Source of the DNA: an uncultured virus (IMG/VR IMGVR_UViG_3300044612_002649)
Lineage: Duplodnaviria > Heunggongvirae > Uroviricota > Caudoviricetes
Reading direction: 5' to 3' (one strand)
Length of the DNA: 64,000 bases
Virus record (IMG/VR): IMGVR_UViG_3300044612_002649
The notes beneath the pieces were generated by a model. That model ran no database searches. It was given only the letters and a program-made list of their open reading frames with translations, and had not been told where the DNA came from. Position numbers and translations under genes: made by a program. Below are positions 9,146-59,514 of this stretch, one piece after another; positions within the stretch are counted from its first letter, which is position 1; each line of letters begins with the position of its first letter.

Positions 9146-12100
9146 TGGCCAATAGTGTCAACTCAAAATCAACTAATATTTCAGCATCATTGTTACCAGG
9201 AATTTACAGAACTGATACAAATAAAAAGTTTTTACAGGCAACTGTTGAGCAATTAACACAGCGTGGAACGGTATCTAAAATCAATGGATATATTGGACGC
9301 CAAAATGCTAAAGCAACAAATGGCAATGATGTTTTTATCGAGGCAGCTGATCCTACTAGACAGAATTATCAATTAGAACCGAGTATGGTTATCAATGATC
9401 AGCAAGGTAATAACATCTTTTTTAAAGATTACCAAGATTATATTAACCAATTATCCGTATTTGGGAGCAATGTTTCTAATCATTCAAGATTGAATAAATC
9501 TGAGATTTATAGTTGGGATCCACAAATTGATTGGGATAAATTTGTAAATTTCCAGCAATATCATTGGTTGCCAGAAGGACCATCGGTTATCACAATTGAT
9601 GATGCTGTTGAAAATATTATTGGACAGCAATCATACAACATTACATCTTCAGTTTTATTGAGTAATGGTATGCTTATTCGTTTATCTGATAATATTGAAT
9701 ATTATGTTGAAGGTGTTGGTACATCTATTAAATTGATAGAATTTTCTGTATTTTCTGAATATTCATCATCTGAACATGACTATGTGGTCATCAATCGTGC
9801 TAGTGTAGAACAGAGTCCATGGGTACTTGGCAATAATTGGGTTCATGCGGATGTTATAAAAACGAGCCTTCAATTAAACGGGTTAATACCAGATATTGAT
9901 AATTCTACTAGAGCTAAACGGCCTATTATAGAATTTAATGCAAATCTAGGCTTGTATAATTATGGATACAATAGAATAGATAACGTTGATTTTTATGATA
10001 CGTTAACAACTGATGCATTTTCGACAGTCGAAGGATCAACTGGTTATTATATTGATAAAGTCGGATTAAAACCAGGTGATCGAGTTATATTTTCAGTAGA
10101 TACTGATGCAACTGTGAGAAATAATGTGTATGAGATCAAATTAGTGAAATCAAAAATTCATTTGAGATTGGTTCATACTGCTACAATGCATGATGTGGTT
10201 AAAATTAAAAATGGAATAGAGAATAGTATATCGACAATTGTTAATAAACAATTATGGTTTGATGGCATGTCTTGGCAAATTGCACAAAAGAAAACATCAT
10301 TACATCAGTCACCATTATTTGATGTGTTTGATGAAAATGGTAATAGTTTTGGTGATAATAGTGTTTATCTAGGAACAACATTTGTTGGTAATAAAATATT
10401 TTCATATGCAGCGGGAACCAATGGATCAGTAGATCCAGTATTAGGATTCATACTTACCTATAAACCAATTAATAATATTGGTGATATAATATTTAATTTC
10501 AATTTTGCAACAGATACATTTAAATATTCTGAATCATCAGCTGTTAAAACTTACTCAGTATCATCTGGATTTTTGAAAAAAATAGCAAATGATGGTTCAG
10601 CCACATATAGCAGTGGTTGGAAAAAATGTGAGTTATCAAATACACAAGCTGCTGTAAGAATTTATAAAAATTTAAATATTGTTAATGATTTTAATTTAGA
10701 TATTTACGATGATATTAACCAATTAACTGATTTAGAAATTCGTATATATGTTAATGGTGTTAGGCTTAATAAAACAAATGGTACTATTAATAACTGGTCC
10801 ATCATTGATGGTCCTTTATATAAAAAAATAAGATTTAACACAGATTTATTATTAACCGATATTTTAACAGTTAGATCGTTTTCTAAACAACCGATAAACA
10901 CAAATGGATATTATGAGTTACCATTGAATTTACAAAATAATCCACAAAATCAATCAATTGGAAGTATGGCATTGAGTGAAGTTCTTGATCACGTTGATTC
11001 AATTGTTGATAATTTAGGCACACAATTTGTTGGAGAAATTCCTGGATATAATAACTTAAGAGATTTGCCTAATATATCATCATATGGTACAAAATTTGTA
11101 AAACATGGATGCCCCTTTGAATTATCATTATTTCATATTACCTCATCTTCTACCAATGTAATTCGGGCGTTAGAGAAAGCTAGAGAAGATTACAATAAAT
11201 TTAAAAGAACTTTTATTAGTGTTGCAGAAACATTAGGTATTGATACGGATGTAAAAACACATGTGGATATGATTTTGACCCATATCAACAAAAATACACC
11301 AGTCACTTCTCCATATTATTTTAGTGATATGGTGCCATATGGACCTTCGATTAAAACTGAGTTTGAAGTAATTGATTACAGAATAACTCAATATCCAATG
11401 ACCACTATATTTACATTGAATGAGTTATCGAATAAAGCAGTAGGAGTTTATGTTAATAATGCTCAATTGATTTATGGAAGTGACTACATTTTTAATTCAC
11501 AAGGATTTGTTGATATAAAATCATCGTTGAATACTGGGGATGTTGTAACTATCTATGAGTATGAAAATACGGATGGATGTTTTATACCGGAAACATTGAC
11601 AAAACTTGGTATTTGGCCAAAATATGTACCTTCAATATACGAAGATACAACATTGATCAATCCGGTTAATATGATTCAAGGGCATGATGGTAGTATGGTA
11701 TTAGCATACGATGATTATAGAGATGCATTATTACTAGAATTAGAAACTAGAATATACAATAATATCAAGATTGAATATGACCCAACCATATTTGATATTA
11801 ATGATATTATACCACGATATGGAGTTGAAAATGATTATAGCTTGGCTGAATTCAATAGTATATTAGAATCGAGTTTTTATAAATGGACATCTTTGATTGA
11901 TGTTGATTTTACAAAAGTTATTGGATATGATTCTACTAATCCATATACATTCAATTATTATGGGTATAGTACACCAGATAATAAAAGTGTACCTGGATAT
12001 TGGAGAGGAATTTATAAATGGTTATATGGAACAGATAGACCGAATATGTGTCCATGGGAAATGTTAGGATTAACTATAAAACCTGAATGGTGGGAAAATA

Positions 12101-15100
12101 CATATGGTGTAGCGCCTTACACCAGTGACAACCTTGTTATGTGGGATGATATCGGTAATGGATTATTAAAAACACCTGGGTCAGAAAAAGTTATATCAAA
12201 ATATATACGTACATATTTGACTAATCATTTGCCAGTAGACAATATAGGTGAATTGGTAAATCCATTGGCGACTGGGTTATTATCAGGTATTGTATCTAAT
12301 GACACTAAAAATAATTTCGTATTTGGTGATGTTAGTCCAGTTGAATCAGCATGGAGAAGAAGTTCTTACTTCCCATTTAGTGTATTAATAACCTCTATAT
12401 TGTTAACTCCTACTAACACTATTGGTGTAACATTAGATAGATCCAGAATTCTCAGAAATGTAGTTGGGGAGTTGATTTATAAAGATACTAAACATGCAAC
12501 ATCTTCTAAAGATATTATACTACCAAGTGTTTATAGTAGCGAAACAACCGTGAGAACATCCGGTATTATAAATTATATTGTTAACTATATTGTAAGCTCT
12601 GATTTAACCACATATGATCAGTATATATATGATTTGTCAAATATTGGATTTGTGTTGAGTTATCGTGTTGGTGCATTCACTAGCAAAGAGAAGTTTAAAT
12701 TATTATTGGATTCAAGCTCACCATTAATTACTGGTAGTGTATTTGTACCACAAGAAGATTACTCAATCATTTTAAATAGTTCATCCCCTACAAAAAAAAT
12801 AACATATAGTGGTGTAATAATTACAAATTCTATTAATGGGTATTCTGTAAAAGGTTATAGTAATACCCAACCATACTTTACTTATTATCCGTGGATTTCG
12901 TCCGGATCAGTTGTTAATGTTGGTGGTATTTCTGAAAGCTATGTAATATGGACAGAAAACCAACAATATACAATTGGACAGGTCATTAAAGTTGGTAATT
13001 CTTATTATAGAGTAGTCACTGGGTTTAGATCCACCTCCATATTTGATAATTCAAACTTACAATTATTATCAGGATTACCAATCGTTGGTGGTCGAGATGC
13101 ATTCTTTAGAAAAGCGTGGGATAGAGATAATCCAATAACTATTCCATATAATACATCTTTTGATACAGAACAACAAGTGGTTGATTTTATATTAGGGTAT
13201 GGAGAATGGTTGTCTGATCAAGGATTTGTATTTGATGAATTCAATAACGAATTAAATCAGGTGGTAAACTGGCGAACTAGTGCAAAAGAATTTTTATTTT
13301 GGACAACACAAAATTGGTCAACTGGAAAAGATTTATGGACTGAATGGGTCCCAAATACATCATATCCGATAAATTCTATAGTCCAATATTTTGGAAATTA
13401 TTATAGTGCTATTCAGAATATTCCATCATCTCCGACATTTGATTATGATTTATATGAACCGATGTATGGATTGAGCAGTGTTGGTAGTTCCGTTATATCA
13501 TTGAGTCCAGCTGCGGATAAAATTACATTTTCAACTAATATTAATGTTGTTGATGATATTGCCAACCAATTTAATGATTATGAAATATTCAGAGTTGACG
13601 GGCAGCCGATCTCACCAACTGAATTGAGTTCATCACGAGATAATAATTTAGTGAGTTACTCTCCACGTAATGATAATGGAATATATAGTGCTAGTTTTTA
13701 TCTAGTGCAAAAAGAACATGTAGTATTATTGAATAACACAACATTATTTAAAGATTTAATTTACGATCCAATTAGTGGTTATAAGCAAAACAGAATAAAA
13801 ATATCAGCACATGTAAGTACAAATTGGTATGGTGGATTAGATCTTCCAGGTTTCATTTTTGATGAAGCGACTATATTAACCTGGGAGCCATGGAAAAGCT
13901 ATGCATTAGGTGACATTGTTCAGTATCAATCGTTATACTATAGTGCAGATTCATTTATTACTGGATCTGAATTATTTAATACAGCTGAATGGAATATATT
14001 ATCAGCAAAACCTGCAACAAAAATTCTACCAAACTGGACAAATGTTGCGACACAATTTGTTGAATTTTACAGCATGGATATAGAGAGTTTTAATAATTCT
14101 CAACAAAATTTAGCACAACATTTAATTGGGTATCAAAAACGACAATATTTAGAAAATATTATTAAAGATGATATTAGTGAATTTAAATTTTATCAAGGGA
14201 TGATTATTGATAAAGGTACACAAAATGTGTTCAATAAATTATTTGATGCAACTGCTGGTAGTTTGAAATTTTACGAAGAATGGGCTATTAGAGAAGGGCA
14301 ATATGGCTCTAGTTCTGCATTTGATGAAATCGAATTTACATTGAATCAATCTGATATTATTAATAATCCACAATGGTACAATTTGACTAATAAAAAAGAT
14401 CCATTATTAAGTGACTATGTACATCAAATAACTCCAGATGAGGTCTACCTGAGACCAATTGGGTATGATTCAAATCCATGGGTAACAGTTACTGGAAATA
14501 ACAGAGTATTAAGAACACCTGGGTTTGTTCGAGAAACTGACGTCTTGGCAACTGTTTCTGATCTATCTGGATTATTATCCCACAATATTGAATTGTTTGA
14601 TGAGGGATCTTATGTATGGTGCACTTTTGAAAATACATCATGGAATGTGTATAGATTTACTAATACCAATCTATCAGTAATTGATGCTATGACTGACAAT
14701 GCTGCTGAATATTTAACCATTATATGTTCAACACCAATCACAGAATTTGTTATTGGCGATTATATTGGTATTAAAGGGATAGATAAATTTTCAAAATTTT
14801 TTAAAGTAATATCTGTTTCTGATGATACATTGGTTGTTGCGGCATCGGGGGTGAAAATAATTCAGCCATTTGAACAGCAGTCAACCGCTATTATTTATAA
14901 ATTCGTATCGCACAGAATTTCTTCAATAAACAATGCACCATCAATATTACCGGCAGTGCTTAAGCCAAATGAATTAATTTGGTCAGATGATGATGGGAAT
15001 GGCAAATGGGCATCATGGCAACATTCTGATATTTATTCAGGTACTATGATTCCAAATCCTTATAAAGATACTAAATCAAATTTTGGTAGAGCGATTGCGT

Positions 15101-18100
15101 ATAGTAAAAATAATTTAATCATGGCGGTTTCAACCACCAATGGTGAAATTTATGTCTATGATGTCATTAGACGGTTGTCTCAAGTAATTTCTAGACCATT
15201 CATATCACATAATGATATTAATAAACTTATCACATTTGGATCTACTATTGCTGTTTCTGATGATGGTCAATGGTTAGTTATTGGTTCACCGATGGTTGGT
15301 CAAGCTGCATCTATTGATAATCAACAAGAACCATCGGTTGACAATCATGTAGTTATGAAGTCATTTGTCAATTCTTCATATTCAAATCAAGGTGTTGTTT
15401 CAATATATGGTAAAGATGTACGTGGGAAATATTATATTAAAAATACATTCACAAGCCCAGAACCTTCTGACAATGAATATTTTGGTTCTGCGATAGAATT
15501 TAGCGGTAATACATTATATGTTGGTGCAGCTGGTAATTCTAATAAAGCTGGTAAAGTATATTCTTTGAATTATAATGCAACAGTACATGTGGAAACATCA
15601 TTTAATGTAATTGGAAATAACGAAACTAGTATTAAAGTTGCAAGTACTGACGGTATTGAATTTGGTATGTATATTGTTGGAACTGGATTTAATAGTAATC
15701 AATATGTGTCGTCTGTTGATATTGATGGATATTCATTGACTATTAGTGCACCACCTGATACACAACCGAGTGGCATTTTGCAATTTGTAACTTATGGATG
15801 GGAACATTCAAATGTTAATTATTCTGTACCAAATACATCTAATTTTGGGTCATCTATTATAGCTACAGAAGATACCACAACAATAGTAATTGCATCTAAC
15901 GGTAACGTGTATGTCTATAAAAATAATACGTTGTTTCAGACAATAACAAAACCTTCTCCATCGTTTGGACGAAGCATAGCTGTATCAGACACTGGTGAAT
16001 ATATTGCCATATCTGATATGTTAGCATTAGATGAATTTGTGCACGAGGGAAGTGTTTACATTTATAAATTACAAGGGAATTCATATGTAGAATATCAAAA
16101 AATTCTGAATAGATCTCCGGTGGTAAATGAACAATTCGGGACAAACATAGCTTTTATGAATGATTATGCAACATTGGTAATATATAGTGGTGATACTGAT
16201 AATCCATATGGCAGAGTTGAAATTTATGATCGATATGCATCAGAGTGGATTTATGCGGAACGTCTTTCACCTCTAACCTTCCAAGCTGGAAAATTTATTT
16301 CAGGTAATTCATATACTATCATATCAGTTGGTTCTACAGATTTTACTACAATTGGCGCATATAGTAATTTAGTTGGTGAATCATTTGTTGCAACTGGATC
16401 TGGCTCGGGTTCCGGCGTGGCATCATTGTATTTGGGAAATACATCCATTAAACAAGCTGGGTCATTTGATAAAGGAAATACTTATACTATTGTTTCAATT
16501 GGTAATACTGATTTTACGGCAATCGGGGCAGCAAGTAATACGGTGGGTACTGTTTTTATTGCATCTGATATTGGGTCTGGAACAGGTACTGCTTCTTTTA
16601 ATCTAGGATTTGCAGTTTCAACAAATAGAATTGCAATAGGAGAACCTGTTGATGCTGATAAAAAAACGAATACTCAGTTTATCGAATCTGGATTAGTATT
16701 TGAATATAAAAAACCAACCGACAGTTATAGTTGGATTAAAAAATATTCTGAATTAGACAAACCTGATATTTCAAAAATTAAAAAAGCATTTTTATACAAT
16801 AAAGTCACTAATAAATTTGTAAAATATGTGGATATTATTGACCCAATACAAGGGAAGATTCCTGGACCAGCAGCACAAGAATTAACATACAGAACATTCA
16901 CTGATCCAGCGGTGTATTCAGTGGTTGAATCATCGTTGTTGAGTTCAGTTGACTATGATGCAGAATCAGCATGGACTACTGCACAAACTGGTCAATTGTG
17001 GTGGGATTTGAGAACTACTAAATTTGTTGAATGCTATGACGATGAAATCATGTATAGAGCAAATAACTGGAATACGTTGGCACATGGTGCATCTATTGAC
17101 ATTTATGAATGGGTTGAATCAGATGTGTTGCCATCTGTGTGGGATATTCAGGCAGATACAGCAACTGGCTTGGCACTTGGTATTAGTGGCACATCTCTAT
17201 ATGGAAACACTGTATACAGTATTAGACAAACTTATGACAATATAAGCAAAACCACAAAAAATACCTATTATTTCTGGGTTAAAAATAAAACAACTGTTCC
17301 AAATAATTCTTCAAGAACTATTTCAAGTGCAAGTATTGCTGGATTGATTACTAATCCTAGTGCATATGGATATCAACACATTTCGATTACTGGTGGTAAT
17401 TCATTTATGATATCCAATATGGCAAGATTATTGAATAAGGATGATATAGTCTTGTCCATTCAGTATTGGTTAGTTGACAATAAGAATTTCAATACTCATT
17501 CTCAATGGCGACTGATAAGCAATGATATTACCACCATTATTCCAGACCGTATTCAAACAAAATGGATTGATAGTTTATGTGGTAGTGATTTGAAGGGTAG
17601 ATTAGTACCAGATACAAGTTTGCCACCTAAATTATTATATGGTGTTGAAAACAGACCACGACAAAGTATGTTCGTGAATCGATTTGAAGCATTAAAACAA
17701 ATCATTGAGCATGTTAATTTAGTATTGGAAAAAAATCAAATATCAACTACCAAAGATTTAACAATGCTACAATCATTTGATGCCGCAGCAAACGTTTCTG
17801 CAAATTTATACGATATTGAAGTTGATACAGAATTAGATTTGACATTTGTAAATTCTAGTATATTTAAAAAACCTGCATTATCCCCATATATCATAGATGG
17901 CAAAATTATTGGAGTCGAAATTATAAATTCTGGGGTTGGGTATCAAAATTCGCCAATGGTCGAAGTAATTGGATCAGGCGTTGGTGCAATTATATCCACC
18001 AATTTAAATAGCAAAGGTCAAATCATATCATGTAATATTGTTAATGGCGGATATGGATATACCGATGAAACCAGTTTAATTGTTAGAAATTATGCCGTAC

Positions 18101-21100
18101 TTGTTAATAGTGATGCCGAATCTAATGGATCATGGTGCTTATATTCCTATGATCCAGATAAAGATTTGTTAACTAGAAGCTTGGTTAAATCATACGATAC
18201 TACCAAATATTGGTATTATGTCGATTGGTACCTTTCTGGGTATAGCAAATTTACGGTGATTAATTACATTGTCAATTTAATTGATGATATTCAGCAAATA
18301 GGTGTGCAAGCAGGCGATATTGTAAAAATAAAAACAAATAGTTCTGGTGAATGGACAATAATTAGAATTGATTCAGTTGTTAACTACATACAGTATACCA
18401 CAGTTGGAATTCAAAATGGTACTATTCAATTAAGTTCAGGATTATATGAATCAGCACAATATGATTCATCATTCTATGCAAGTGCTGGGTATGACAACTA
18501 CCCAACTACTGAATTAAGAATAATTTTAGAATCATTAAAAAATGATATTTTTGTGGATGATTTATACAGCGAATATTTAAATTTATTTTTTTCAAGTGTT
18601 AGATATGCATTGAGTGAACAAAATTATTTAGATTGGATTTTTAAAACTAGTTTTATAAAAGCTAAACATACGGCAAGTCCGTTGCACCAACCAGTTACAT
18701 ACAGAAATGATAACTTATCAGATTTTGAAAAATATGTATCAGAAGTTAAGCCATATAGAACTCAAGTTCGTGAATATATAAGTACATACAATGGATTAGA
18801 CAACAGTAATACCATGGTTTCTGATTTCGATTTGCCATCCGTGATAACAGATGGCGTTAATACACCAATTAATATTACCATTGTTGATGGTGAAATTCGA
18901 TCAGATAATGCTGTTGTCAATCAATATCCATGGAAGTCGTGGCTAGATAATGTTGGTTTTCAAATTGTTGATATTCTAATTTCGATACCTGGTAATAATT
19001 ATGATGAAGCACCAACAGTACTCATTGAGAGTGATTCTGGATCTGGTGCTACTGCGATTGCAACAGTTGAAGGTGGAAGAGTTACAAATATAACTATTAC
19101 TAATCCTGGATCTGGCTATATTACTACTCCACGAGTAGTAATTCAGCAATCTCCTACTGGGGCATCTGCGGTTGCCACTGCTATTCTTGGTAACAGTGTA
19201 GTACGAACAAGCAAAATCAAGATGAAATTTGATAGAATTAATTATGATTATGTGCTTAATACATTAGAAGAATCTGAAACCTTTATAGGAAATGGGCTTC
19301 AAACAACGTTCCCACTAAAATGGTCACCAGATATTAGAAATGGATATACTGTAATCAAAATTGACGGAATAGTTATATTCAGTCATCAATTCACAATTTC
19401 TAAAGTCGAAACTCCAGTTGAGTATGAATATTATACTCAACATACCGGCGAGATTGTATTTAATGAAGCACCATTGCTTAATTCTATAATCGAAGTTATG
19501 TATACTAAAGATAGTGAAATATTAACAGAAACCGATAGAATTCAATTCTACTATAATACAAAAGTTGGTGAATTAGGTAAGGAATTGCCACAACTATTGA
19601 CTGGGATCGATTATGCTGGTGTAATAGTTGATGGTATTTCATTTGATATTAATAAAGGTTGGAATAGTCTTGCCTATAACTCTGGTAGATGGAATAGTTA
19701 TGATCCAAATTTTACAGATTATACTAAAACAATTTCAGTTGATGATATCACTAATAATACTGATCATGAAATACTGCTCCCATATATTCCAACAATTGGT
19801 GAATTGCTGACCATTTATAAAAACGAAATACGATTGGATGATTTATTATTTTCAACACCTGATCAAATCAATGTTGATGCAATCATGCAAACGCCACAGG
19901 TTATGGCAGAATCAACTGATTCTGTAGTTATTAATCAAGATGGCTCAGTGACTATTGTATTGCCATCATCATTATCTGTAGTAGTAAATGATGTATTTGT
20001 TGTACGGAAATTCGATAGTGATGGATCAGTATCGCCTGATTATGAAGATATTGATACCGTATTACTTGGTGGCAATCTGCCGTATACAACGGCGACTGGA
20101 TACGCACCATCTGATATAATTGTTGATGGAGATGGTTTTGTAACACCAACTACCAGTCCAGCACCAGAGGAATTAATTGCTGGACAATTAATTGATACAT
20201 TATCAATTAAAGTAACACAGCCTGGCATTGGTTATCGTCAATTCAAAGACATGTTGAATAAAACTCGTTATACAGTATTAAATGCTGATAAAAAAACCAC
20301 TTTAGCTGCACCATTGCGTTGGTATGATACCGAGATTTATGTAAATGATCCGTCTGTCTTGGACGAACCAAGTCCAGCAAATAATCAACCAGGAGTGATT
20401 GAAATTGGGAGTGAGCGTATTGAATATTTTGTTATTAATAATAATGCACTATCCCAGTTAAGACGAGCTACACTAGGAACTGGAGCAAGAACTGAATATG
20501 TGATTGGAACAGATGTTCAAAATATAGGATATAGTCAAGAAATTATATATTCTGATAATACAATTACAAAAACAATTATTGTTTCTGACGATTCAAATTT
20601 AATTGATTTAGATTTCATTCCACGAAAGTCGTTATTTGACCGTGATATATGGGCAAATGATCCATTCAGACCAAGCACATTTGAAACATCTATTCCACCG
20701 GAATATGGACAGACCAATGATATTGAATTATTTGTCGGTGGATATACTCATACGCAATGGGAAAGCGATACAATTTATTATACTGATCAAATCATTACTC
20801 ATAATGGATTTTTATATAGAATTAATGCAAAACATTTATCTGGTGAAGGATTTGAAGAACAGGTATCATTATTAGATTTGAATGATGATGTTATTGAGGA
20901 GAACGTGCCGTATAATACTGTTTATTCCATTTTTGATATATCTTCTAATACTGCATGGATGGTAAATACGATATATGATGTAAATCAAATAGTTTACCAT
21001 AATAGCCAGCTTTATAGAATAAAATCAAGACATCGTTCTGGGTCTACATTTGAAAGTGACGTTACTACATTGGCATTGGATGAAACCGTTATTAGTGAAG

Positions 21101-21345
21101 GTGTAAAAGCATCGGCAGTTCGTGAGATTTGTGGAAATCAATCTAGATTGAAAAAATCACCATATATTATGCATGATCAAAATGTGTCATTATATAGCCC
21201 AACCGGTGATGTGTACTTTGATGCAGATTTTTCAGTAGATGGGGTTAATAAACAAGTTAGATTAACCCATAAACTACCAGTTGGTACAATTATTACCATT
21301 GTGAAACAAACTGGGGTTGAATGGAATAATCAATATACGATTTAA
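9145..21345 (+). CDS. Giant 4066-aa baseplate/virion structural protein with FG-GAP-like and carbohydrate-binding-like repeats
   Basis: Uninterrupted ORF after gp6; starts with LLP.IYRT..NKKFL; internal repeats visible. Confidence 0.75.
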   Translation: MANSVNSKSTNISASLLPGIYRTDTNKKFLQATVEQLTQRGTVSKINGYIGRQNAKATNGNDVFIEAADPTRQNYQLEPSMVINDQQGNNIFFKDYQDYINQLSVFGSNVSNHSRLNKSEIYSWDPQIDWDKFVNFQQYHWLPEGPSVITIDDAVENIIGQQSYNITSSVLLSNGMLIRLSDNIEYYVEGVGTSIKLIEFSVFSEYSSSEHDYVVINRASVEQSPWVLGNNWVHADVIKTSLQLNGLIPDIDNSTRAKRPIIEFNANLGLYNYGYNRIDNVDFYDTLTTDAFSTVEGSTGYYIDKVGLKPGDRVIFSVDTDATVRNNVYEIKLVKSKIHLRLVHTATMHDVVKIKNGIENSISTIVNKQLWFDGMSWQIAQKKTSLHQSPLFDVFDENGNSFGDNSVYLGTTFVGNKIFSYAAGTNGSVDPVLGFILTYKPINNIGDIIFNFNFATDTFKYSESSAVKTYSVSSGFLKKIANDGSATYSSGWKKCELSNTQAAVRIYKNLNIVNDFNLDIYDDINQLTDLEIRIYVNGVRLNKTNGTINNWSIIDGPLYKKIRFNTDLLLTDILTVRSFSKQPINTNGYYELPLNLQNNPQNQSIGSMALSEVLDHVDSIVDNLGTQFVGEIPGYNNLRDLPNISSYGTKFVKHGCPFELSLFHITSSSTNVIRALEKAREDYNKFKRTFISVAETLGIDTDVKTHVDMILTHINKNTPVTSPYYFSDMVPYGPSIKTEFEVIDYRITQYPMTTIFTLNELSNKAVGVYVNNAQLIYGSDYIFNSQGFVDIKSSLNTGDVVTIYEYENTDGCFIPETLTKLGIWPKYVPSIYEDTTLINPVNMIQGHDGSMVLAYDDYRDALLLELETRIYNNIKIEYDPTIFDINDIIPRYGVENDYSLAEFNSILESSFYKWTSLIDVDFTKVIGYDSTNPYTFNYYGYSTPDNKSVPGYWRGIYKWLYGTDRPNMCPWEMLGLTIKPEWWENTYGVAPYTSDNLVMWDDIGNGLLKTPGSEKVISKYIRTYLTNHLPVDNIGELVNPLATGLLSGIVSNDTKNNFVFGDVSPVESAWRRSSYFPFSVLITSILLTPTNTIGVTLDRSRILRNVVGELIYKDTKHATSSKDIILPSVYSSETTVRTSGIINYIVNYIVSSDLTTYDQYIYDLSNIGFVLSYRVGAFTSKEKFKLLLDSSSPLITGSVFVPQEDYSIILNSSSPTKKITYSGVIITNSINGYSVKGYSNTQPYFTYYPWISSGSVVNVGGISESYVIWTENQQYTIGQVIKVGNSYYRVVTGFRSTSIFDNSNLQLLSGLPIVGGRDAFFRKAWDRDNPITIPYNTSFDTEQQVVDFILGYGEWLSDQGFVFDEFNNELNQVVNWRTSAKEFLFWTTQNWSTGKDLWTEWVPNTSYPINSIVQYFGNYYSAIQNIPSSPTFDYDLYEPMYGLSSVGSSVISLSPAADKITFSTNINVVDDIANQFNDYEIFRVDGQPISPTELSSSRDNNLVSYSPRNDNGIYSASFYLVQKEHVVLLNNTTLFKDLIYDPISGYKQNRIKISAHVSTNWYGGLDLPGFIFDEATILTWEPWKSYALGDIVQYQSLYYSADSFITGSELFNTAEWNILSAKPATKILPNWTNVATQFVEFYSMDIESFNNSQQNLAQHLIGYQKRQYLENIIKDDISEFKFYQGMIIDKGTQNVFNKLFDATAGSLKFYEEWAIREGQYGSSSAFDEIEFTLNQSDIINNPQWYNLTNKKDPLLSDYVHQITPDEVYLRPIGYDSNPWVTVTGNNRVLRTPGFVRETDVLATVSDLSGLLSHNIELFDEGSYVWCTFENTSWNVYRFTNTNLSVIDAMTDNAAEYLTIICSTPITEFVIGDYIGIKGIDKFSKFFKVISVSDDTLVVAASGVKIIQPFEQQSTAIIYKFVSHRISSINNAPSILPAVLKPNELIWSDDDGNGKWASWQHSDIYSGTMIPNPYKDTKSNFGRAIAYSKNNLIMAVSTTNGEIYVYDVIRRLSQVISRPFISHNDINKLITFGSTIAVSDDGQWLVIGSPMVGQAASIDNQQEPSVDNHVVMKSFVNSSYSNQGVVSIYGKDVRGKYYIKNTFTSPEPSDNEYFGSAIEFSGNTLYVGAAGNSNKAGKVYSLNYNATVHVETSFNVIGNNETSIKVASTDGIEFGMYIVGTGFNSNQYVSSVDIDGYSLTISAPPDTQPSGILQFVTYGWEHSNVNYSVPNTSNFGSSIIATEDTTTIVIASNGNVYVYKNNTLFQTITKPSPSFGRSIAVSDTGEYIAISDMLALDEFVHEGSVYIYKLQGNSYVEYQKILNRSPVVNEQFGTNIAFMNDYATLVIYSGDTDNPYGRVEIYDRYASEWIYAERLSPLTFQAGKFISGNSYTIISVGSTDFTTIGAYSNLVGESFVATGSGSGSGVASLYLGNTSIKQAGSFDKGNTYTIVSIGNTDFTAIGAASNTVGTVFIASDIGSGTGTASFNLGFAVSTNRIAIGEPVDADKKTNTQFIESGLVFEYKKPTDSYSWIKKYSELDKPDISKIKKAFLYNKVTNKFVKYVDIIDPIQGKIPGPAAQELTYRTFTDPAVYSVVESSLLSSVDYDAESAWTTAQTGQLWWDLRTTKFVECYDDEIMYRANNWNTLAHGASIDIYEWVESDVLPSVWDIQADTATGLALGISGTSLYGNTVYSIRQTYDNISKTTKNTYYFWVKNKTTVPNNSSRTISSASIAGLITNPSAYGYQHISITGGNSFMISNMARLLNKDDIVLSIQYWLVDNKNFNTHSQWRLISNDITTIIPDRIQTKWIDSLCGSDLKGRLVPDTSLPPKLLYGVENRPRQSMFVNRFEALKQIIEHVNLVLEKNQISTTKDLTMLQSFDAAANVSANLYDIEVDTELDLTFVNSSIFKKPALSPYIIDGKIIGVEIINSGVGYQNSPMVEVIGSGVGAIISTNLNSKGQIISCNIVNGGYGYTDETSLIVRNYAVLVNSDAESNGSWCLYSYDPDKDLLTRSLVKSYDTTKYWYYVDWYLSGYSKFTVINYIVNLIDDIQQIGVQAGDIVKIKTNSSGEWTIIRIDSVVNYIQYTTVGIQNGTIQLSSGLYESAQYDSSFYASAGYDNYPTTELRIILESLKNDIFVDDLYSEYLNLFFSSVRYALSEQNYLDWIFKTSFIKAKHTASPLHQPVTYRNDNLSDFEKYVSEVKPYRTQVREYISTYNGLDNSNTMVSDFDLPSVITDGVNTPINITIVDGEIRSDNAVVNQYPWKSWLDNVGFQIVDILISIPGNNYDEAPTVLIESDSGSGATAIATVEGGRVTNITITNPGSGYITTPRVVIQQSPTGASAVATAILGNSVVRTSKIKMKFDRINYDYVLNTLEESETFIGNGLQTTFPLKWSPDIRNGYTVIKIDGIVIFSHQFTISKVETPVEYEYYTQHTGEIVFNEAPLLNSIIEVMYTKDSEILTETDRIQFYYNTKVGELGKELPQLLTGIDYAGVIVDGISFDINKGWNSLAYNSGRWNSYDPNFTDYTKTISVDDITNNTDHEILLPYIPTIGELLTIYKNEIRLDDLLFSTPDQINVDAIMQTPQVMAESTDSVVINQDGSVTIVLPSSLSVVVNDVFVVRKFDSDGSVSPDYEDIDTVLLGGNLPYTTATGYAPSDIIVDGDGFVTPTTSPAPEELIAGQLIDTLSIKVTQPGIGYRQFKDMLNKTRYTVLNADKKTTLAAPLRWYDTEIYVNDPSVLDEPSPANNQPGVIEIGSERIEYFVINNNALSQLRRATLGTGARTEYVIGTDVQNIGYSQEIIYSDNTITKTIIVSDDSNLIDLDFIPRKSLFDRDIWANDPFRPSTFETSIPPEYGQTNDIELFVGGYTHTQWESDTIYYTDQIITHNGFLYRINAKHLSGEGFEEQVSLLDLNDDVIEENVPYNTVYSIFDISSNTAWMVNTIYDVNQIVYHNSQLYRIKSRHRSGSTFESDVTTLALDETVISEGVKASAVREICGNQSRLKKSPYIMHDQNVSLYSPTGDVYFDADFSVDGVNKQVRLTHKLPVGTIITIVKQTGVEWNNQYTI
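16282..16596 (+). repeat. Intragenic tandem duplication of a ~48-aa module
   Basis: QAGKFISGNSYTIISVGSTDFTTIGA...GSGSGSGVAS vs QAGSFDKGNTYTIVSIGNTDFTAIGA...GSGTGTAS. Confidence 0.85.
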
Positions 21346-30194: not shown

Positions 30195-30479
30195 TTATGC
30201 ATGTACAAATGGACATGCAATCAAGAAAAAGCTCATCTCTTTCTCTTCTTCGAATCCAATTTGTGTATTATACACGAATGAATTCTTGTTGTCAAGCATT
30301 ATTCCTTGCCCGACGTAATATCTATTATTTAAATTCAATTCAATCCACTCACTAATATTTTTTACAGTTTTTGGATTATACGAAGATAGTGAGAAGTATT
30401 TGAAATGCGGGGGCGCATATTCAACCCTCCGCATTTTGAAATAATTCAAGGGATTTGGCTTGCCGTTTTTCAACGCCAT
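30195..30479 (-). CDS. Hypothetical protein
   Basis: ORF abutting the VWA gene stop. Confidence 0.7.
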   Translation of the reverse strand: MALKNGKPNPLNYFKMRRVEYAPPHFKYFSLSSYNPKTVKNISEWIELNLNNRYYVGQGIMLDNKNSFVYNTQIGFEEEKEMSFFLIACPFVHA

Positions 30480-31672
30480 TAGTCAGTGCCCTTTACATCA
30501 TCATAGTAAGCATATTCGCCGAACGGTGGAACAATTGAAGTAGTTCCGTGACCAATGAAGACGGTGTCACAATAATCTGCATCACCCCATGATCCACATG
30601 GATACATGTCTGTAAACATAATGAATTTTTTAGGAACAATATCTCTATCTTTCATATATTCCCAATTTACTTCGAAATCGGTGCCACCGCCACCCATTGG
30701 CTGATAATGGTCGAATTCATCCATTGTATATCCGTCAAAGTCGGCTTCATTATAGATGCTTGTATCAAAACACCATAATTTAATTTTGAAATCTTGATAT
30801 TCTTGCATAATACCTTTGATTTCGCTTAAAAAATCTTTGGCTTGATCATTACTAATTGAACCTGACATATCAATACTTACACAAATATCAATAGTATCTT
30901 TCAAATTTGAACCTGGTAAAATAGCAGACAAATGCCAGCTTTTTCTACTTGGACGCATCCAAGAATAATCTTCTTTGATTACACTTTGAATTTGTTGACG
31001 CAAAATTTGACGCCAGTTCATTTTCGGTTCAGTTAATTCTTGAATCAACCGTTGTACACTTGCTGGGATATTTCCAGCGCCGGATGCTTGTGCTGCCGCC
31101 ATTACTGCTTCACGAACTTCATCACGAATGCCACGCAGTTCATCTTTTGTGTAAACTGGTCTATCAGGATTATTTGGATCTTCTTGTTCCCAGTCGATGT
31201 GTTGGTCGAGTAATTCACCCAATTTATCCAACATTTCGTCATTATGATCTTTTAAGAGATCATAAATTTCTTCAGCTCCCATACCGTAGTATTTTTGGTC
31301 GTGTAGAATATTGATTCCTGGAATTTGCCAATCACCAATTTTATCACGAACAATTTGACCATTAACACAATAGTCAGCAGCCCAATTGAACAATTTTGGA
31401 TGGCGACCTTCACGACGACTCATATGGTCGAATACGTTGTGCATGATTTCATGCGCCAACACGAATTCAATTTGGGGAACTGTCAATGGTTCAAAAAAAT
31501 CTTTATTGAAAAAAATGTGTTTGCCTTCGGTTGATGCTGTTTTACACCATTCACCACCTTCTTTAATAATCAGGCGTGTTGCTAGATTTCCAAAAAATGG
31601 ATGACGTAATAACAAACCAACCCTAGCAATGATGATATTGTCTTTAATCTTATCTAATACTGGATCTGACAT
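30479..31672 (-). CDS. HExxH metallopeptidase-like + VWA domain protein (DUF2201-type)
   Basis: AHEIMH, MIDAS DMSGS, GGGGTDF, FTD; start revised to ATG 31672 (MSDPVL, AGGA SD). Confidence 0.85.
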   Translation of the reverse strand: MSDPVLDKIKDNIIIARVGLLLRHPFFGNLATRLIIKEGGEWCKTASTEGKHIFFNKDFFEPLTVPQIEFVLAHEIMHNVFDHMSRREGRHPKLFNWAADYCVNGQIVRDKIGDWQIPGINILHDQKYYGMGAEEIYDLLKDHNDEMLDKLGELLDQHIDWEQEDPNNPDRPVYTKDELRGIRDEVREAVMAAAQASGAGNIPASVQRLIQELTEPKMNWRQILRQQIQSVIKEDYSWMRPSRKSWHLSAILPGSNLKDTIDICVSIDMSGSISNDQAKDFLSEIKGIMQEYQDFKIKLWCFDTSIYNEADFDGYTMDEFDHYQPMGGGGTDFEVNWEYMKDRDIVPKKFIMFTDMYPCGSWGDADYCDTVFIGHGTTSIVPPFGEYAYYDDVKGTD

Positions 31673-31725
31673 TTGTATTCCTAGTAATTTGAAAAGGACT
31701 ATTAATCCCTGGATGTTAAACTTAA

Positions 31726-31752
31726 GGTTGGGGGCTGAAACAACCCCCAACC
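31726..31752 (-). terminator. GC-rich hairpin between the AAA and VWA genes
   Basis: ggttggggg...cccccaacc. Confidence 0.6.
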
Positions 31753-40644: not shown

Positions 40645-43101
40645 TTAGAATCTAAAAAGAGCATTTGATGATGTCTGTTCATTGGTACTCATTAGATCCC
40701 ATTCTAATACACCGATCAAATTTGACACTTTTTTATCAATAATAACAGCTTCCATTGCTGAATGTTCAAATGGTAGTTCTTTAAACCACTGTGGTAATCT
40801 CAGTTCATCAACAGGGTAAGCAACACTGGTAAATCCTAATGGATTATCTTTCAGTTTACATACAATTACTTTAGCACCATCAGTAATATTCATTGAATAT
40901 TTGTCAGAAAATACCGATTTTAAAGTATTCCAATTCAGACTAGCTCGAACATGACCAGGCATATTTGCTTTACCAGTGTTATCTTCTAATGCTCGATATT
41001 TGGTGATATTATTAGCTCGTTTCGGGCTACCTTTTTCCCAGCCTGGTCTTGCTTTGAATAAAGATCTAAATTCTGATATTCGATTCAAAACTTCTTTTTC
41101 AGGAGAACCAGTTAATACCATTTCTAATATTTCACTCAAGAAATTTTGCATGAATTCAGGGGTATCTGATCGTTTCAAATCTAATCCCATTGCTTTTATC
41201 TCACCAGGTTTGCCATCTTTATCTTTGCGTTTCCCTTCTTTATCGTACACTAATACCGCATATCGTTTTTTTGTAATGAACAATGCTTTACTACCAACAA
41301 TTTCTCGTCCAGCTTTAATAACTTCACCTCTAATTGGTGGGCAATGAAATGCTGATAACATGAATGGAGAGAATGTTTTGTTTACGTCTTCACCTATCTG
41401 ATCGTATAATGCAGATACATCTTCTTTCTCCCATGGGATATTTCCAGCTTCTATTTCTTTTTTGAAGATTGGATATGCAGAAAAATAAACCGAGTCTGTA
41501 TCACCATAAATAACAGCCTTGCCAATATGATTGTATTCACCTGTTACAATTTGATTAACAGTTCCAGCCATATGTTTAGCAATTTGTCTACCAGTCAATG
41601 TTACCGATTGACCAATACGTTTATCGTAAAATCTACAACCGGCATTTAAAATAGCACCGTATAAACTGTTCAAATTAATTTTTTTAACTAATTGTCTTTT
41701 ATCCCAGTATTCTTCCTGTTCTTTATCACCTGCTGCAATAGCTTCCTTGAGTTTCTTTTGCATATCTTTACGTTCAGCATACCATCGTTTTAATAATCCT
41801 GGAATGATTGCTTCATTTTCATATGTAAAAATAGTACCATTTGCACTTAACATCCATGGCTGTTTTGATTCAAAGATCATTTGATAAATGCGATCAGCGC
41901 TCGCAACATCAGACCCACCATCTTCCCAGTCAATAGTAATCTGCTTATCGTATTCTTTATTCATAACAGCAGTGTATTCTAATGTGCCAAATACACCTTC
42001 CCAAGATGCGGTAATTGATCGACCGTTTGCCATCTCAGATTTAAGAAATGCATCGGTCATATCAGGACGAAGCTGACCAACAATAGTTTCTGGGCCCATA
42101 TTGAGAGCACGAATTACTGATGGATATAGTGAATTGATGTCTAATGAGCCAACCCAATCATGCAATCCTTCTTTTGGGTTTGCTACATAAGCACCAGCTG
42201 CCATGTTTTCTGATGTGCTATCAGATTTGAGTCTAGTTGGTACTTGAAACCCGCGTTGATGCGCTTCATTAATAATAGCTTGCTCGGTTACTGCTACTGC
42301 ACCCATAGTGGTTTGTAGTAATACCGTATTTTCATGTGCTAATGTATTAGCTAGATCTAAAAACTTTAATTTTTTATCTAGCTTTTCCAACAGCATAGTA
42401 TCTTGTCTGTTATATTCAATAAATGTTCTAAAATCATTATTATATAACTGATCAAGTGTTCCCTCATATGCTGTTTTATGCTCACCTAACTCATATTCAG
42501 CAATTGCATCTAGGCGATAGCTATGACGCTCTTCGTAAGTATATTTGCGATAAAGTTCCAAACTATCCATATGAACTCTACCCACAAAATCATAGGTTGA
42601 TGCTGTCTTACCATATCTTTCATATTCACGTTTTTTCGGGAATTGATTGAATAGACAGAAACGTCTAGTATCATCTTTGCTTAATACTTTGGTAACCCGA
42701 TTAACGGTGTATGGAATATCAAAACCTTCTGAATTCCAGCCACTTAATACATCGGCATCTTTTATTAAATCCAAAAATGTATCTAATAGTTCTGCTTCAG
42801 TATTGAATAATATAGTGTTTGGAAATTCTTTGACAATTTCGGTTGCTTCCTCCATTGACAAGGTTTTTGGAGGGATTGCAAGACATACCAGAGTGTTTAA
42901 CCATTGTAAGTGAACTGCAATCGCAGTAATTGGCATAAATGCATCATCTGGTGATGCATATCCTGGTCCAGGTTTTAAATAGCTACAATCTGCAATATTA
43001 ACCCATTTTTTTAATGTTTCATCGTAAACTTCATACTCATCTTTATTTTGTATGTTACTTAATTCAAATACTGATATTTCTTTTTCTTCCAATATTCCCA
43101 T
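40645..43101 (-). CDS. Family B DNA polymerase, large C-terminal subunit of a split gene
   Basis: ExoII WNSEGFD, ExoIII YNRQD, DINSLYPS, KINLNSLYG, YGDTDS, KKRY; no ExoI DIE; own GAGG SD. Confidence 0.92.
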   Translation of the reverse strand: MGILEEKEISVFELSNIQNKDEYEVYDETLKKWVNIADCSYLKPGPGYASPDDAFMPITAIAVHLQWLNTLVCLAIPPKTLSMEEATEIVKEFPNTILFNTEAELLDTFLDLIKDADVLSGWNSEGFDIPYTVNRVTKVLSKDDTRRFCLFNQFPKKREYERYGKTASTYDFVGRVHMDSLELYRKYTYEERHSYRLDAIAEYELGEHKTAYEGTLDQLYNNDFRTFIEYNRQDTMLLEKLDKKLKFLDLANTLAHENTVLLQTTMGAVAVTEQAIINEAHQRGFQVPTRLKSDSTSENMAAGAYVANPKEGLHDWVGSLDINSLYPSVIRALNMGPETIVGQLRPDMTDAFLKSEMANGRSITASWEGVFGTLEYTAVMNKEYDKQITIDWEDGGSDVASADRIYQMIFESKQPWMLSANGTIFTYENEAIIPGLLKRWYAERKDMQKKLKEAIAAGDKEQEEYWDKRQLVKKINLNSLYGAILNAGCRFYDKRIGQSVTLTGRQIAKHMAGTVNQIVTGEYNHIGKAVIYGDTDSVYFSAYPIFKKEIEAGNIPWEKEDVSALYDQIGEDVNKTFSPFMLSAFHCPPIRGEVIKAGREIVGSKALFITKKRYAVLVYDKEGKRKDKDGKPGEIKAMGLDLKRSDTPEFMQNFLSEILEMVLTGSPEKEVLNRISEFRSLFKARPGWEKGSPKRANNITKYRALEDNTGKANMPGHVRASLNWNTLKSVFSDKYSMNITDGAKVIVCKLKDNPLGFTSVAYPVDELRLPQWFKELPFEHSAMEAVIIDKKVSNLIGVLEWDLMSTNEQTSSNALFRF

Positions 43102-43804
43102 CGTTCCCTCGATATTTTGAAATATATGTTACACAAGCACCATTTTCTAATAATCCATTATAATGTTGTAATCTATACTTTATTTGTCTATAAGTATATC
43201 CAGTTATAGACAATACATCATCATATGATGAAAATTCAATTGTTTCATTGTTGACTGTAGTCATCAAAAATGTAGAACTTTTCCCCTTTTTGATAGAATC
43301 ACCACGTTTTTTATGATCACATTTTTGAACTGAATTTTTCATTCGTAAATCCATGTCTTCTTTAGACATTAATGATAATGTAGATTTTAATGTATTCCTT
43401 ACCTTATCATAATCGTAGTTATAAACTCCGGATTTATGATTTTGCAAAAACTTTTTTTTACGGTCTATGCATTTATTAGGATTATTTTCAGAAAATTTGA
43501 TTCTAGCCGCTGAATATGAATGACTAGTAACCCGATATTCATTGTATCCTTTTCTAGTTTTTGACATCCACCATAATGCATATATCATTTTTTTATAAAA
43601 TATAGGTGTATCTTTATATATTTTAACCAATAATAAATGGCATATAAAATGTTCACGGGTGGTTAACAATACTAAATTTTCTTTACTATTATCACCACCA
43701 CAACTACGTGGTATTATATGATGCTTTTCTAACAATATATTTTTAGTTCTATTTTTTAATTGTGCGGATTTAATTATATCGTTGTATATTTTTAAATAAT
43801 TCAT
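43064..43804 (-). mobile_element. Free-standing HNH homing endonuclease (Mob-like) inserted in polB
   Basis: EKHHIIPRSCGGDNSKENLVLLTTREHFICH; AAGGAG SD; late promoter GATAAATA at 43823-43830. Confidence 0.9.
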
Positions 43805-43853
43805 AGTATTCTCCTTTAGAATTATTTATCATTATTACTTCGATATCAAACAA

Positions 43854-44243
43854 TCATTGTTTTTTTCTGATTTTAACCATGTGCTGGGATGATACTGCAA
43901 ATGCTTGCATATCAACCTCAATATCAAACCATGCTACATTAAGCTTTGGTGCATCTTGGTTTATGTAATGTTCACTGAGACAAACAAATATTGGGTTTAG
44001 ATCGGCTTCAAAAAGTTTTTTGTTACCATTGACAGCTACTTCTTTACGAAAATCTCGTGTATTTTTACATACAACTTTCGTTAATGGTTTGCCATATATT
44101 GATCGGTATTTTCCTTTAGTATCACCATAATAAAATGTAGGTTTTACTGGGAAATCTCGGTATTCTCTACCACCTGCTTTATTGCGTTCAACGACTTTTA
44201 CAATATCAGCAGTTTTATCAAAAAATGCATCTACATAGCTCAT
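43854..44243 (-). CDS. Family B DNA polymerase, small N-terminal subunit (N-terminal domain + ExoI)
   Basis: MSYVDA...FEADLNP...LNVAWFDIEVD followed by an 18-aa tail. Confidence 0.88.
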   Translation of the reverse strand: MSYVDAFFDKTADIVKVVERNKAGGREYRDFPVKPTFYYGDTKGKYRSIYGKPLTKVVCKNTRDFRKEVAVNGNKKLFEADLNPIFVCLSEHYINQDAPKLNVAWFDIEVDMQAFAVSSQHMVKIRKKQ

Positions 44244-44401
44244 TCTGAATCCCCCATTAAAGAGGTTTCGTCTTCACCACGTTGTTTTGCTACATCTTCT
44301 GATAGCATTTCTTCAATTTTGCATGAACATCTAGCTTCACAATCGTGAAGTGACGGACATGTTTCACATACTTCAAATTCGAAGTCTTTGTTAATTTCCA
44401 T
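44240..44401 (-). CDS. Small Cys-rich protein
   Basis: Start revised to MEINKD (GGAG SD); CxxC..CxxxCxC; ATGA overlap with the polB N-terminal gene. Confidence 0.6.
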   Translation of the reverse strand: MEINKDFEFEVCETCPSLHDCEARCSCKIEEMLSEDVAKQRGEDETSLMGDSE

Positions 44402-44415
44402 ATTATATTCTCCAT

Positions 44416-44464
44416 TTATGATTTCCGGCTCATAAGCACCCATCTATGCGGTTTATGGCCCAGC
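44416..44464 (-). promoter_or_regulatory. Twin hairpins with GCCNNAAA loops, possible translational operator
   Basis: gc(t)gg-GCCATAAA-ccgc and ttatga-GCCGGAAA-tcataa just upstream of the SD. Confidence 0.4.
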
Positions 44465-44487
44465 CTACCTTTCCAATAACTATTAAA

Positions 44488-44742
44488 TTAAATATTTTTA
44501 GTAATATCTAAAATAGCTTCAACTTCTTGCCAATCTTCATTATGATTGTTCCAATCACCTTTATATGCAATTTTAATTGCTTTATTAATGATTGCAGGTT
44601 TGATGTCTAATTCATCAGCAATACTTTTTACAGTTTCTTTCAAGCTTTCACGTAGATCATCAATTTCCCGCATGACTGTGCCGCCTTCGGTAATGATTTT
44701 TTCTAGTTTAGCTTTTTCTTCTGGTCCATACGAACGACTCAT
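44488..44742 (-). CDS. DsbA/GapR-like dsDNA-binding protein
   Basis: 84 aa, EIDDLRESLKE....IADELDIKPAII.KAI pattern. Confidence 0.6.
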   Translation of the reverse strand: MSRSYGPEEKAKLEKIITEGGTVMREIDDLRESLKETVKSIADELDIKPAIINKAIKIAYKGDWNNHNEDWQEVEAILDITKNI

Positions 44743-59368: not shown

Positions 59369-59514
59369 GTTTATTCCTACTAATTATGTTCTATATTTAT
59401 TTATCTATAATAAAGTTTATTTTTTTATAAAAGGTAAATACTATTACAGGACCAATATGGTTATCGAGCTGGTTACCACACGTCCTGATTTCTCACACAA
59501 GTAGGAGATACTGA

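Follow-up and report, generated by a model that had tools for sequence, protein, structure and literature searches.

The window analyzed here is a 64,000-nucleotide (nt) stretch of DNA from an uncultured virus of the class Caudoviricetes (IMG/VR record IMGVR_UViG_3300044612_002649), taken at its full length. In it a family-B DNA polymerase gene is divided into two open reading frames (ORFs), with a gene for an HNH homing endonuclease between them. Of particular concern is a short sequence in front of the endonuclease gene: a second copy of the codons for the polymerase ExoI motif, which lies beside the promoter of the endonuclease gene and forms a candidate operator. All features of the locus are read from the minus strand. 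The N-fragment of the polymerase (129 amino acids, 44243-43854) was taken from the ORF list and matches phrog_262 (E 5e-11); its residues 1-111 align to the start of uninterrupted polymerases at 79 of 80 related loci. It carries the ExoI motif WFDIEV followed by an 18-residue tail, MQAFAVSSQHMVKIRKKQ, which is encoded by a mobile cassette delimited below. The end of the fragment reads ...WFDIEVDMQAFAVSSQHMVKIRKKQ-TGA (also written ...NVAWFDIEVDMQAFAVSSQHMVKIRKKQ-TGA), the stop codon occupying 43856-43854. The resident ExoI codons, TGGTTTGATATTGAGGTT (W F D I E V), are found at 43931-43914 and form the left flank of the cassette insertion site.

Next comes the HNH gene (246 amino acids, 43804-43064), which is free-standing, with its own start (an ATG at 43804), ribosome-binding site and stop. 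The ribosome-binding site, AAAGGAG at 43811-43817, was read from the sequence, and GGAG-like sites occur at the same place in relatives. The ORF matches Pfam HNH (22.8 bits, cutoff 21.4) and the homing endonuclease family phrog_655 (E 2.5e-37). The C-fragment of the polymerase (818 amino acids, 43101-40645) matches Pfam DNA_pol_B (E 1.9e-40) and DNA_pol_B_exo1 (E 4.7e-15), and begins within the HNH gene, with an overlap of 38 nt. Residues 1-46 of this fragment are a cassette-encoded head; relatives align from residue 44 onward.

The earlier note on this DNA had described a polymerase split by an HNH gene. This description is borne out, with the polymerase being of family B and the HNH gene free-standing, by the Pfam and PHROG matches and by the absence of any Rfam match (none at E up to 1 in 42500-44500, both strands), and hence of any sign of a group I intron. 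An intron-encoded endonuclease was rejected on that ground and because the N-fragment has its own stop, the C-fragment its own start, and each is conserved in relatives as a separate ORF. A split intein was rejected as well. The N-terminal part of an intein starts with Cys or Ser and the C-terminal part ends in His-Asn followed by Cys, Ser or Thr, for a total of about 130 residues or more; here the tail is 18 residues long and starts with Met, and the head is 46 residues long and ends in KPGP followed by Gly. One related locus (L074) moreover retains the same extra residues within an uninterrupted polymerase.

Directly 3′ of the N-fragment stop, at 43853-43836, stands the copy, TTGTTTGATATCGAAGTA, which is identical to the resident ExoI codons at 14 of 18 positions. 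One of the four differences falls on a second codon position (TGG>TTG); the other three are synonymous third-position changes (ATT>ATC, GAG>GAA and GTT>GTA). The copy ends 5 nt short of the octamer GATAAATA (43830-43823). In all of these respects the copy is as first described. Comparison among relatives, given below, defines a conserved core of 14 nt, TTGATATYGARGTA, at 43849-43836. Across both strands of the window (128 kb) the 18-mer is matched at 14 or more of 18 positions in one other place only, and the number of such matches expected within 150 nt on the same strand is approximately 0.0012. With at most one mismatch the core occurs at the copy and at the real ExoI site and nowhere else in the window; at up to two mismatches there are 9 matches against 3.85 expected. 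On the strength of the low expectation nearby and of the uniqueness of the core a chance match was rejected: the copy is not a coincidence.

The octamer GATAAATA resembles a T4-type late promoter, and its core, TAAATA, is invariant in relatives. Such sequences are depleted in the window: RATAAATA occurs 14 times (26.9 expected) and TATAAATA three times (14.4 expected). Genes that have RATAAATA on their own strand, 24-35 nt ahead of the start, are the HNH gene, a baseplate wedge gene (start 5573, motif at 5547), a virion structural protein gene (start 59368, motif at 59398) and the genes at 21451 and 52779. An octamer like TATAAATA some 20-30 nt before the start, shared with virion genes, is what a T4-type late promoter should look like, and we consider the term "HNH late promoter", used when the copy was first noticed, a fair reading of the sequence. 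Early genes have clear promoters of the form TTGACA-N17-TATAAT, such as those preceding 44742 and 55975. None of the three other on-strand GATAAATA promoter candidates of the window contains the core; because of this absence, and of its uniqueness at up to one mismatch, the core is not a general part of promoters, and a general promoter motif was discarded as an explanation.

Metatranscriptome contigs (two runs of one sample, at low depth, with DNA carry-over possible) span the N-fragment and the copy and, in parts, the HNH gene. One RNA-library contig of 800 nt bridges 43723-44500; the contigs show neither transcript starts nor strand nor levels. A single RNA-library contig, at a depth below 5, carries a base change and a 1-nt deletion at 43925-43926, in the resident ExoI codons, most likely an assembly error.

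With the HNH protein as query 29 loci were found, 20 of which (L081-L100) show the order N-fragment, HNH, C-fragment; these comprise 12 distinct sequences, whose HNH proteins range from 100% down to 42-44% identity to that of the window. The core is retained with at most one change in 11 of the 12 distinct alleles. The exception is the lineage L094 with its identical twin L100, where the copy reads TTGGTATGGAGGAG and keeps 9 of the 14 core positions. In the alignment of the 12 alleles the core, TTGATATnGArGTA, has nine invariant and four near-invariant columns. It is followed by a spacer (ATAATGA in the window, 43829-43835) that is free in sequence, without a single invariant column, and fixed in length: 7 nt from copy to TAAATA in all aligned alleles. 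TAAATA itself is unchanged in all 12. From the N-fragment stop to the HNH start, then, the sequence varies freely save for three blocks: the core, TAAATA and the GGAG-like ribosome-binding site.

In some lineages, including that of the window, the copy is in frame behind the N-fragment stop, which may be TGA, TAA or TAG; in four of the 12 alleles (L091, L092, L093 and L096) it is out of frame, and therefore the copy is not kept as coding sequence. RNAalifold found no consensus pairs among the 12 alleles, that is, no conserved RNA structure. Given the free frame and the lack of shared RNA pairs, the constraint falls on the sequence as DNA and on the spacing between it and the promoter core. Conservation in other HNH-containing alleles had been proposed as a check on the copy, and the copy passes it. 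These comparisons support the view that the copy is a conserved promoter-adjacent DNA element under selection, as judged from its pattern of change, rather than a decaying relic.

The idea of a relic had been the alternative offered in the earlier note. It holds that the copy is left over from the original insertion, or from an older junction in which the HNH promoter stood directly after FDIEV, and that it is now functionless. The position of the copy is in keeping with this (it lies inside the cassette, near the left end, and follows the stop in frame in several lineages), as is its decay in L094 and L100. Yet the core persists at an HNH identity of 42-44%, at which spacer and leader bases are randomized, and changes in the copy are confined almost entirely to two positions. 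A core kept in 11 of 12 alleles amid variable neighbors disfavors a relic, to which we attach very little credence.

The same alignment bears on the possibility that the element works in RNA or is translated, either as a structure that hides the HNH start in read-through mRNA or by read-through of the stop codon. For the window alone there is something to be said for both: the RNA of 43875-43775 folds at −14.4 kcal/mol (z −3.3), with GAUAUCG of the copy paired to CGAUAUA of the HNH gene, and the copy follows TGA in frame. Against this, the 12 alleles share no consensus pairs, the pairing needs Asn-Tyr-Leu codons found only in the window's sub-lineage, and both frame and stop codon differ among lineages. 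As an account of the conserved copy we regard an RNA-level or translated element as extremely improbable. The sub-lineage hairpin is nonetheless an observation in its own right: within 43775-43875 (minus strand) the promoter region AUAAAUAAUUC pairs with GAAUUAUUUA at the HNH start codon. According to the predicted fold it could mask the start of HNH in transcripts that read through, a kind of control known for I-TevI and mobE.

A third possibility is that the core belongs to the promoter, where it would serve host sigma-70 as a −35-like TTGATA or be bound by a phage activator at about −30, in either case without binding by HNH. The likeness to FDIEV would then be coincidental, or left over and exapted. 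In a sigma-70 scan TTGATA and AATAAT, 17 nt apart, score 10/12; the spacing to TAAATA is fixed, and the position is about that at which −35 or activator boxes lie. However, 14 bases are conserved rather than six. Moreover, with a spacer of 17 nt the second hexamer varies among alleles in its two final bases (AT, AA, AG, GT, CT), and it is the T and A immediately ahead of this hexamer that are invariant. The clear early promoters of the window, TTGACA-N17-TATAAT, do not contain the core, which with up to one mismatch is restricted to the copy and the real ExoI site, and the sigma-70 scan returned 14 sites against 13.7 in shuffled sequence. We consider a promoter element unlikely, though it deserves to be kept in mind.

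An exact search of viral contigs for the composite pattern gave 43 loci, 22 in polymerase-HNH context and 21 elsewhere. The latter are mostly matches within coding sequence, including the ExoI motif of another polymerase; with 21 of 43 matches outside the context, the composite pattern alone is not diagnostic. The search added two lineages of the same arrangement (L128/L149 and L131/L144). In the first of these (L128:1243-2214 and L149:860-1831) the match to HNH comes in two pieces (residues 1-111 and 108-235) lying approximately 290 nt apart, which points to an additional segment within the endonuclease gene; this lineage has an intact promoter-side copy.

What the ExoI codons have to do with the endonuclease becomes apparent from polymerase genes that lack it. 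Searched against viral contigs, the C-fragment had more than 607 matches, the best 80 of which were examined: HNH is present in none of these 80, and the polymerase is uninterrupted in 79. The uninterrupted polymerases read ...FDIEVD-FDPER-GYASPDDAFMPIT...; in the window FDPER is replaced by MQAFAVSSQHMVKIRKKQ-stop, the HNH gene and MGILEEKEISVFELSNIQNKDEYEVYDETLKKWVNIADCSYLKPGP. Comparison with the 79 uninterrupted alleles, together with an empty/filled pair and the density of mismatches, defines a mobile cassette of approximately 947 nt (43910-42964), which substitutes for the 15 nt encoding FDPER directly after FDIEVD. Its contents are the 18 tail codons with their stop, the FDIEV copy, promoter and ribosome-binding site, the HNH gene and the 46 head codons. 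By this sequence comparison the mobile unit includes, besides the HNH gene, about 64 extra polymerase codons, a component that the earlier note had missed.

The boundaries of the cassette are visible as steps in divergence. Between the window and the filled alleles L086 and L088 the mismatch is ∼25% up to 43915, ∼4-8% from 43914 to 43016, and ∼22% from 42976 onward. The left-hand step, at 43915/43914, falls directly after the FDIE(V/T) codons. Tail, copy, promoter, HNH gene and head are therefore a block with a separate history. A single pair of alleles captures the event itself: the empty allele L001 (3962-4030), one of the 79 uninterrupted ones, and the filled allele L088 (2862-3862) are near-isogenic and appear as a natural homing product. 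For more than 600 nt upstream, as far as TGGTTCGATAT, the two are 100% identical; thereafter L088 has ATC GAG ACT and L001 has ATT GAG GTG, and the cassette of L088 stands where L001 has TTCGATCCAGAACGT. On the right, L088 resembles L086 for ∼68-80 nt before it again resembles L001. On the left the converted patch is ∼10-26 nt, with the crossover inside the conserved ExoI patch (−27 to −11 from the cassette). Homing with co-conversion of the flanks would be expected to leave such a pattern, as far as sequence can tell.

In a neighbor-joining tree of the C-terminal part of the polymerase (85 sequences, without support values) filled alleles are polyphyletic among empty ones. Sporadic presence among close alleles, combined with flank co-conversion, is what characterizes a free-standing homing endonuclease. 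From the divergence step, the scattered tree and the L001/L088 pair it follows that the uninterrupted alleles are the targets and that FDIEVD is the left flank of the insertion site. The earlier proposal that HNH targets the FDIEV codons of endonuclease-free alleles stands to this extent: they border the invaded site in empty alleles (L001/L088, with boundaries at FDIE(V/T)D), and that HNH itself recognizes them is a plausible next step. An exact search with the 33-nt flanks for an isogenic empty allele of the window's own phage gave filled copies only (one metagenome and four viral contigs).

These data also bear on a role for the copy in mobility, either as a site at which HNH nicks to start repair synthesis or as a short patch of homology for strand invasion at ∼25% divergence. 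The left crossover of L088 does lie inside the conserved ExoI patch (−27 to −11), and with filled-allele flanks ∼25% diverged short conserved patches matter. Invasion at the copy, however, would delete the 18-codon tail and fuse FDIEV to non-polymerase sequence; such a fusion was seen in none of the 20 HNH-selected and none of the 22 pattern-selected polymerase-context loci. Nor does such a role require a fixed distance of 7 nt to the promoter core. A mobility site is accordingly a rather improbable account of the copy.

Two further observations concern the cassette and its surroundings. L074 (3923-4192) contains ∼63 homologous extra residues in one continuous polymerase frame, without an HNH gene; at the join, KIRK-IKTVVDEKEIT, a split-allele tail seems to run into an L094-like head. 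L074 represents either an ancestral state or a clean loss of HNH. In a model of its N-terminal 420 residues the extra residues (113-177) have a predicted local distance difference test (pLDDT) score below 50 and no fold can be read. The second observation lies upstream of the N-fragment: within a small Cys-rich ORF (44443-44240, minus strand) the stretch 44310-44430 is 92-98% identical between the window and L086, whereas the adjacent N-fragment is only 65-75% identical. The stretch is either a strongly constrained small gene or another exchanged patch.

With empty alleles in hand it is possible to compare three versions of the ExoI codons: the copy, the resident site and the empty site. The consensus of the 79 empty alleles is TTTTTCGATATTGAGGTAGAC. 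Val is encoded in 79 of 79 (GTA 40, GTG 27, GTT 7 and GTC 5), and the wobble bases vary at Ile (T 67, C 12) and at Glu (G 61, A 18). In 16 filled alleles the resident site has ACN (Thr) nine times and GTT seven times in place of this codon, and GTA or GTG not once. The copies that accompany them have GTA in 14 of 16, vary almost only at the Ile and Glu wobble positions, and remain within the synonymous variation of empty alleles; the codon counts of copy, resident and empty sites are not phylogenetically independent, and no probability was computed from them. In L091-L093 the copy extends to the Asp codon GAT, and that of L092 matches an empty allele at 20 of 21 positions. Gene conversion of the copy from the resident site was rejected because the wobble bases of a copy do not follow those of the resident site in the same allele; in the window all three wobble bases differ.

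It had been suggested that the resident allele was recoded to be immune to its own enzyme. In favor of this, the resident codon is ACN or GTT, with GTA or GTG in none of the 16 filled alleles as against 67 of 79 empty ones, and in L088 the change arrived with the cassette. The resident site of the window, on the other hand, still matches 13 of the 14 core bases. A simpler source of immunity, in view of the structure of the locus, would be the insertion itself, which separates the two halves of the site. The change to Thr or GTT may add to this immunity in many lineages, although for the window it is not evident.

The endonuclease has the parts that binding to such a sequence would call for. 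Its model (pLDDT 77.5) shows an N-terminal HNH domain, a helical middle and a well-predicted C-terminal beta-beta-alpha-alpha-beta unit (178-229). Foldseek gave no match to this model at an E value of 0.001 or better; it listed I-HmuI (1u3e) with probability 0.95 over 81 columns of the HNH part. In the VIA wide search I-HmuI came second (Z 6.3, root-mean-square deviation 4.1, 65 residues), with residues 163-231 of the model on residues 108-174 of the 1u3e chain, which we take to be the DNA-binding end of I-HmuI. With scores in the middle range (Z below 8) this match is a lead rather than proof of the same mode of binding. On the evidence of the model, HNH appears modular, with a putative C-terminal DNA-binding domain. 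The gene is under purifying selection (ratio of nonsynonymous to synonymous substitution rates, dN/dS, 0.15-0.17), and the protein is conserved over its whole length; that the C-terminal part is conserved in all 12 homologues would fit a conserved DNA target.

Taken together these features can be assembled into a mechanism in which the 18-nt copy works in cis for the mobile cassette. The cassette homes into uninterrupted family-B polymerase genes directly after the FDIEVD codons, and HNH would recognize the ExoI-coding sequence, the left half of the site. Something closely resembling this half-site is kept 7 nt upstream of TAAATA in the late-type promoter of the HNH gene, where the C-terminal DNA-binding part of the enzyme would bind it. 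Since the remainder of the target is missing, no cut would follow; bound HNH would instead block the late transcription machinery, and the enzyme would in this way limit its own synthesis. A sequence beside the promoter that resembles the cassette junction (14/18 positions shared with the resident site; in relatives, as many as 20/21 shared with empty alleles) is what such an operator predicts. By sequence and by analogy with I-TevI, the most likely reading, a sharper form of the main idea of the earlier note, is that the copy is an autorepression operator that mimics the homing target; our confidence in this is about even.

Several observations weigh against an operator. The copy was expected to match the FDIEV codons of unsplit relatives more closely than the resident ones: copies in relatives match empty alleles at up to 20/21 positions, but the copy of the window itself is 14/21 identical to the empty-allele consensus, equal to the 14/21 that it shares with its own resident site. 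The resident ExoI site retains 13 of 14 core bases not only in the window but also in L097 and L131, and any protein with affinity for the copy would be expected to bind this site as well. Lying upstream of the −10-like element and separated from TAAATA by 7 nt, the core abuts that element without overlapping it. In L094 and L100 HNH is intact though the copy is degenerate. The first six bases of the copy, with the 17-nt spacer and AATAAT, can also be read as the sigma-70-type promoter (10/12) considered above. Upstream of nine distant HNH relatives in other contexts (L101-L109, without L107) a crude test found no clear copy of the flank; L102 gave 14/16 twice, and two of 30 shuffles did as well. 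Finally, according to the review PMC2988022, the cleavage sites of free-standing endonucleases are usually hundreds of bases or more away from where the genes are inserted, and for this reason the junction sequence need not be the recognition site.

If the copy is an operator, then the cassette as a whole might be seen as a self-contained kit, free of both intron and intein, for invading a block of catalytic-site codons. It would comprise HNH, some 64 split codons that aid reassembly of the polymerase, a target look-alike that limits the nuclease, and, carried in the co-converted flank, the change from Val to Thr or GTT as a second means of self-protection. We put this forward tentatively, as a possibility that we doubt more than we believe.

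The precedent for an operator of this kind, cited when the copy was first noticed, is indeed as claimed. The operator of I-TevI, the endonuclease of the T4 td intron (Edgell et al. 2004, via PMC2988022), is identical to the homing site at 15 of 20 positions and overlaps the late promoter; as related in the accessible part of PMC2988022, I-TevI binds operator and homing site with equal affinity, cleaves the operator ∼100-fold less, and both binding and repression have been shown. The present locus is similar in that a homing-site look-alike stands beside the endonuclease's own late promoter (14/18 to the resident site here, 15/20 there), the promoter is of a similar T4 type, and the endonuclease appears, from its model, to be modular with a separate DNA-binding domain. 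It is different in that the enzyme is HNH rather than GIY-YIG and free-standing, without an intron. The site, moreover, is located 7 nt upstream of the promoter core without overlap, copies the left insertion flank only, and is known here from sequence alone. For I-TevIII and I-TevII operator-like matches to the homing site over middle or late promoters have been proposed only (PMC2988022, in the part available). Both of these enzymes, unlike the present one, are intron-encoded. I-TevIII is itself an HNH enzyme.

I-HmuI, from Bacillus phage SPO1 (1u3e), is among the best structural matches for both the HNH and the C-terminal parts, although it is intron-encoded and only 11-12% identical in sequence. 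It too sits in a DNA polymerase gene. Essential genes split by free-standing endonucleases are likewise on record: nrdA of Aeromonas phage Aeh1 with mobE, T4 gene 60 with mobA, and gene 43 of Aeromonas phage 25 with seg, the last being a precedent for a split family-B polymerase (accessible part of PMC2988022). The same source notes that the products of split genes must reassemble and that control of MobE-type expression is layered and includes a late promoter; in the part of it available no target-mimic operator is described for MobE or for the seg of phage 25. Unlike these cases, the split here falls right after the ExoI catalytic motif, the cassette brings ∼64 extra codons, and an empty/filled pair is available.

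Other arrangements differ: a phage methylase has an in-frame insertion with a hidden HNH (PMC11855218), and phage MIJ3 has a split polymerase with a split intein and HNH (PMC6892783), each as described in the portion of the source available. Among the titles retrieved on I-TevI and related work from the library searched, none reports a homing-site operator for a free-standing endonuclease, and the present arrangement is absent among those retrieved on split DNA polymerases and HNH. The make-up of the cassette, an endonuclease together with split linker codons, appears unusual.

By DNA, no near relative of the window was found among GenBank phages. By polymerase protein the nearest cultured phages are the jumbo phages Sinorhizobium phage Phosso (51%) and Agrobacterium phage Atu_ph07 (47%), and the stretch itself occurs in lake and freshwater metagenome runs of many studies. 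The polymerase of Atu_ph07 (MF403008.1; L159:2162-5131) is annotated as two genes, split much further in, with an 18-nt gap and no endonuclease. Elsewhere in the window a second, unrelated HNH endonuclease gene (30479-31750, minus strand; 423 amino acids; phrog_1314, E 1.3e-108) adjoins an ATPase gene, and a single ORF of 4066 codons (9145-21345, plus strand) lies in the baseplate and tail-fibre region.

The locus is of interest for several reasons. It shows how a nuclease gene can come to adjoin the catalytic-motif codons of an essential polymerase, namely by bringing its own linker codons. It provides three natural substrates – the empty site, the resident site and the promoter-side copy – along with a near-isogenic empty/filled pair. 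The core is a natural recognition candidate of 14 nt with known tolerated positions, and may be of interest for nuclease engineering. According to PMC2988022, in the part available, I-TevI is the one endonuclease for which autorepression by way of a homing-site look-alike has been demonstrated, two other T4 intron endonucleases being proposed cases. If the copy does act as an operator, then a look-alike kept by a free-standing HNH endonuclease through deep divergence would suggest that self-limitation is a general need of homing endonucleases rather than a peculiarity of a single intron.

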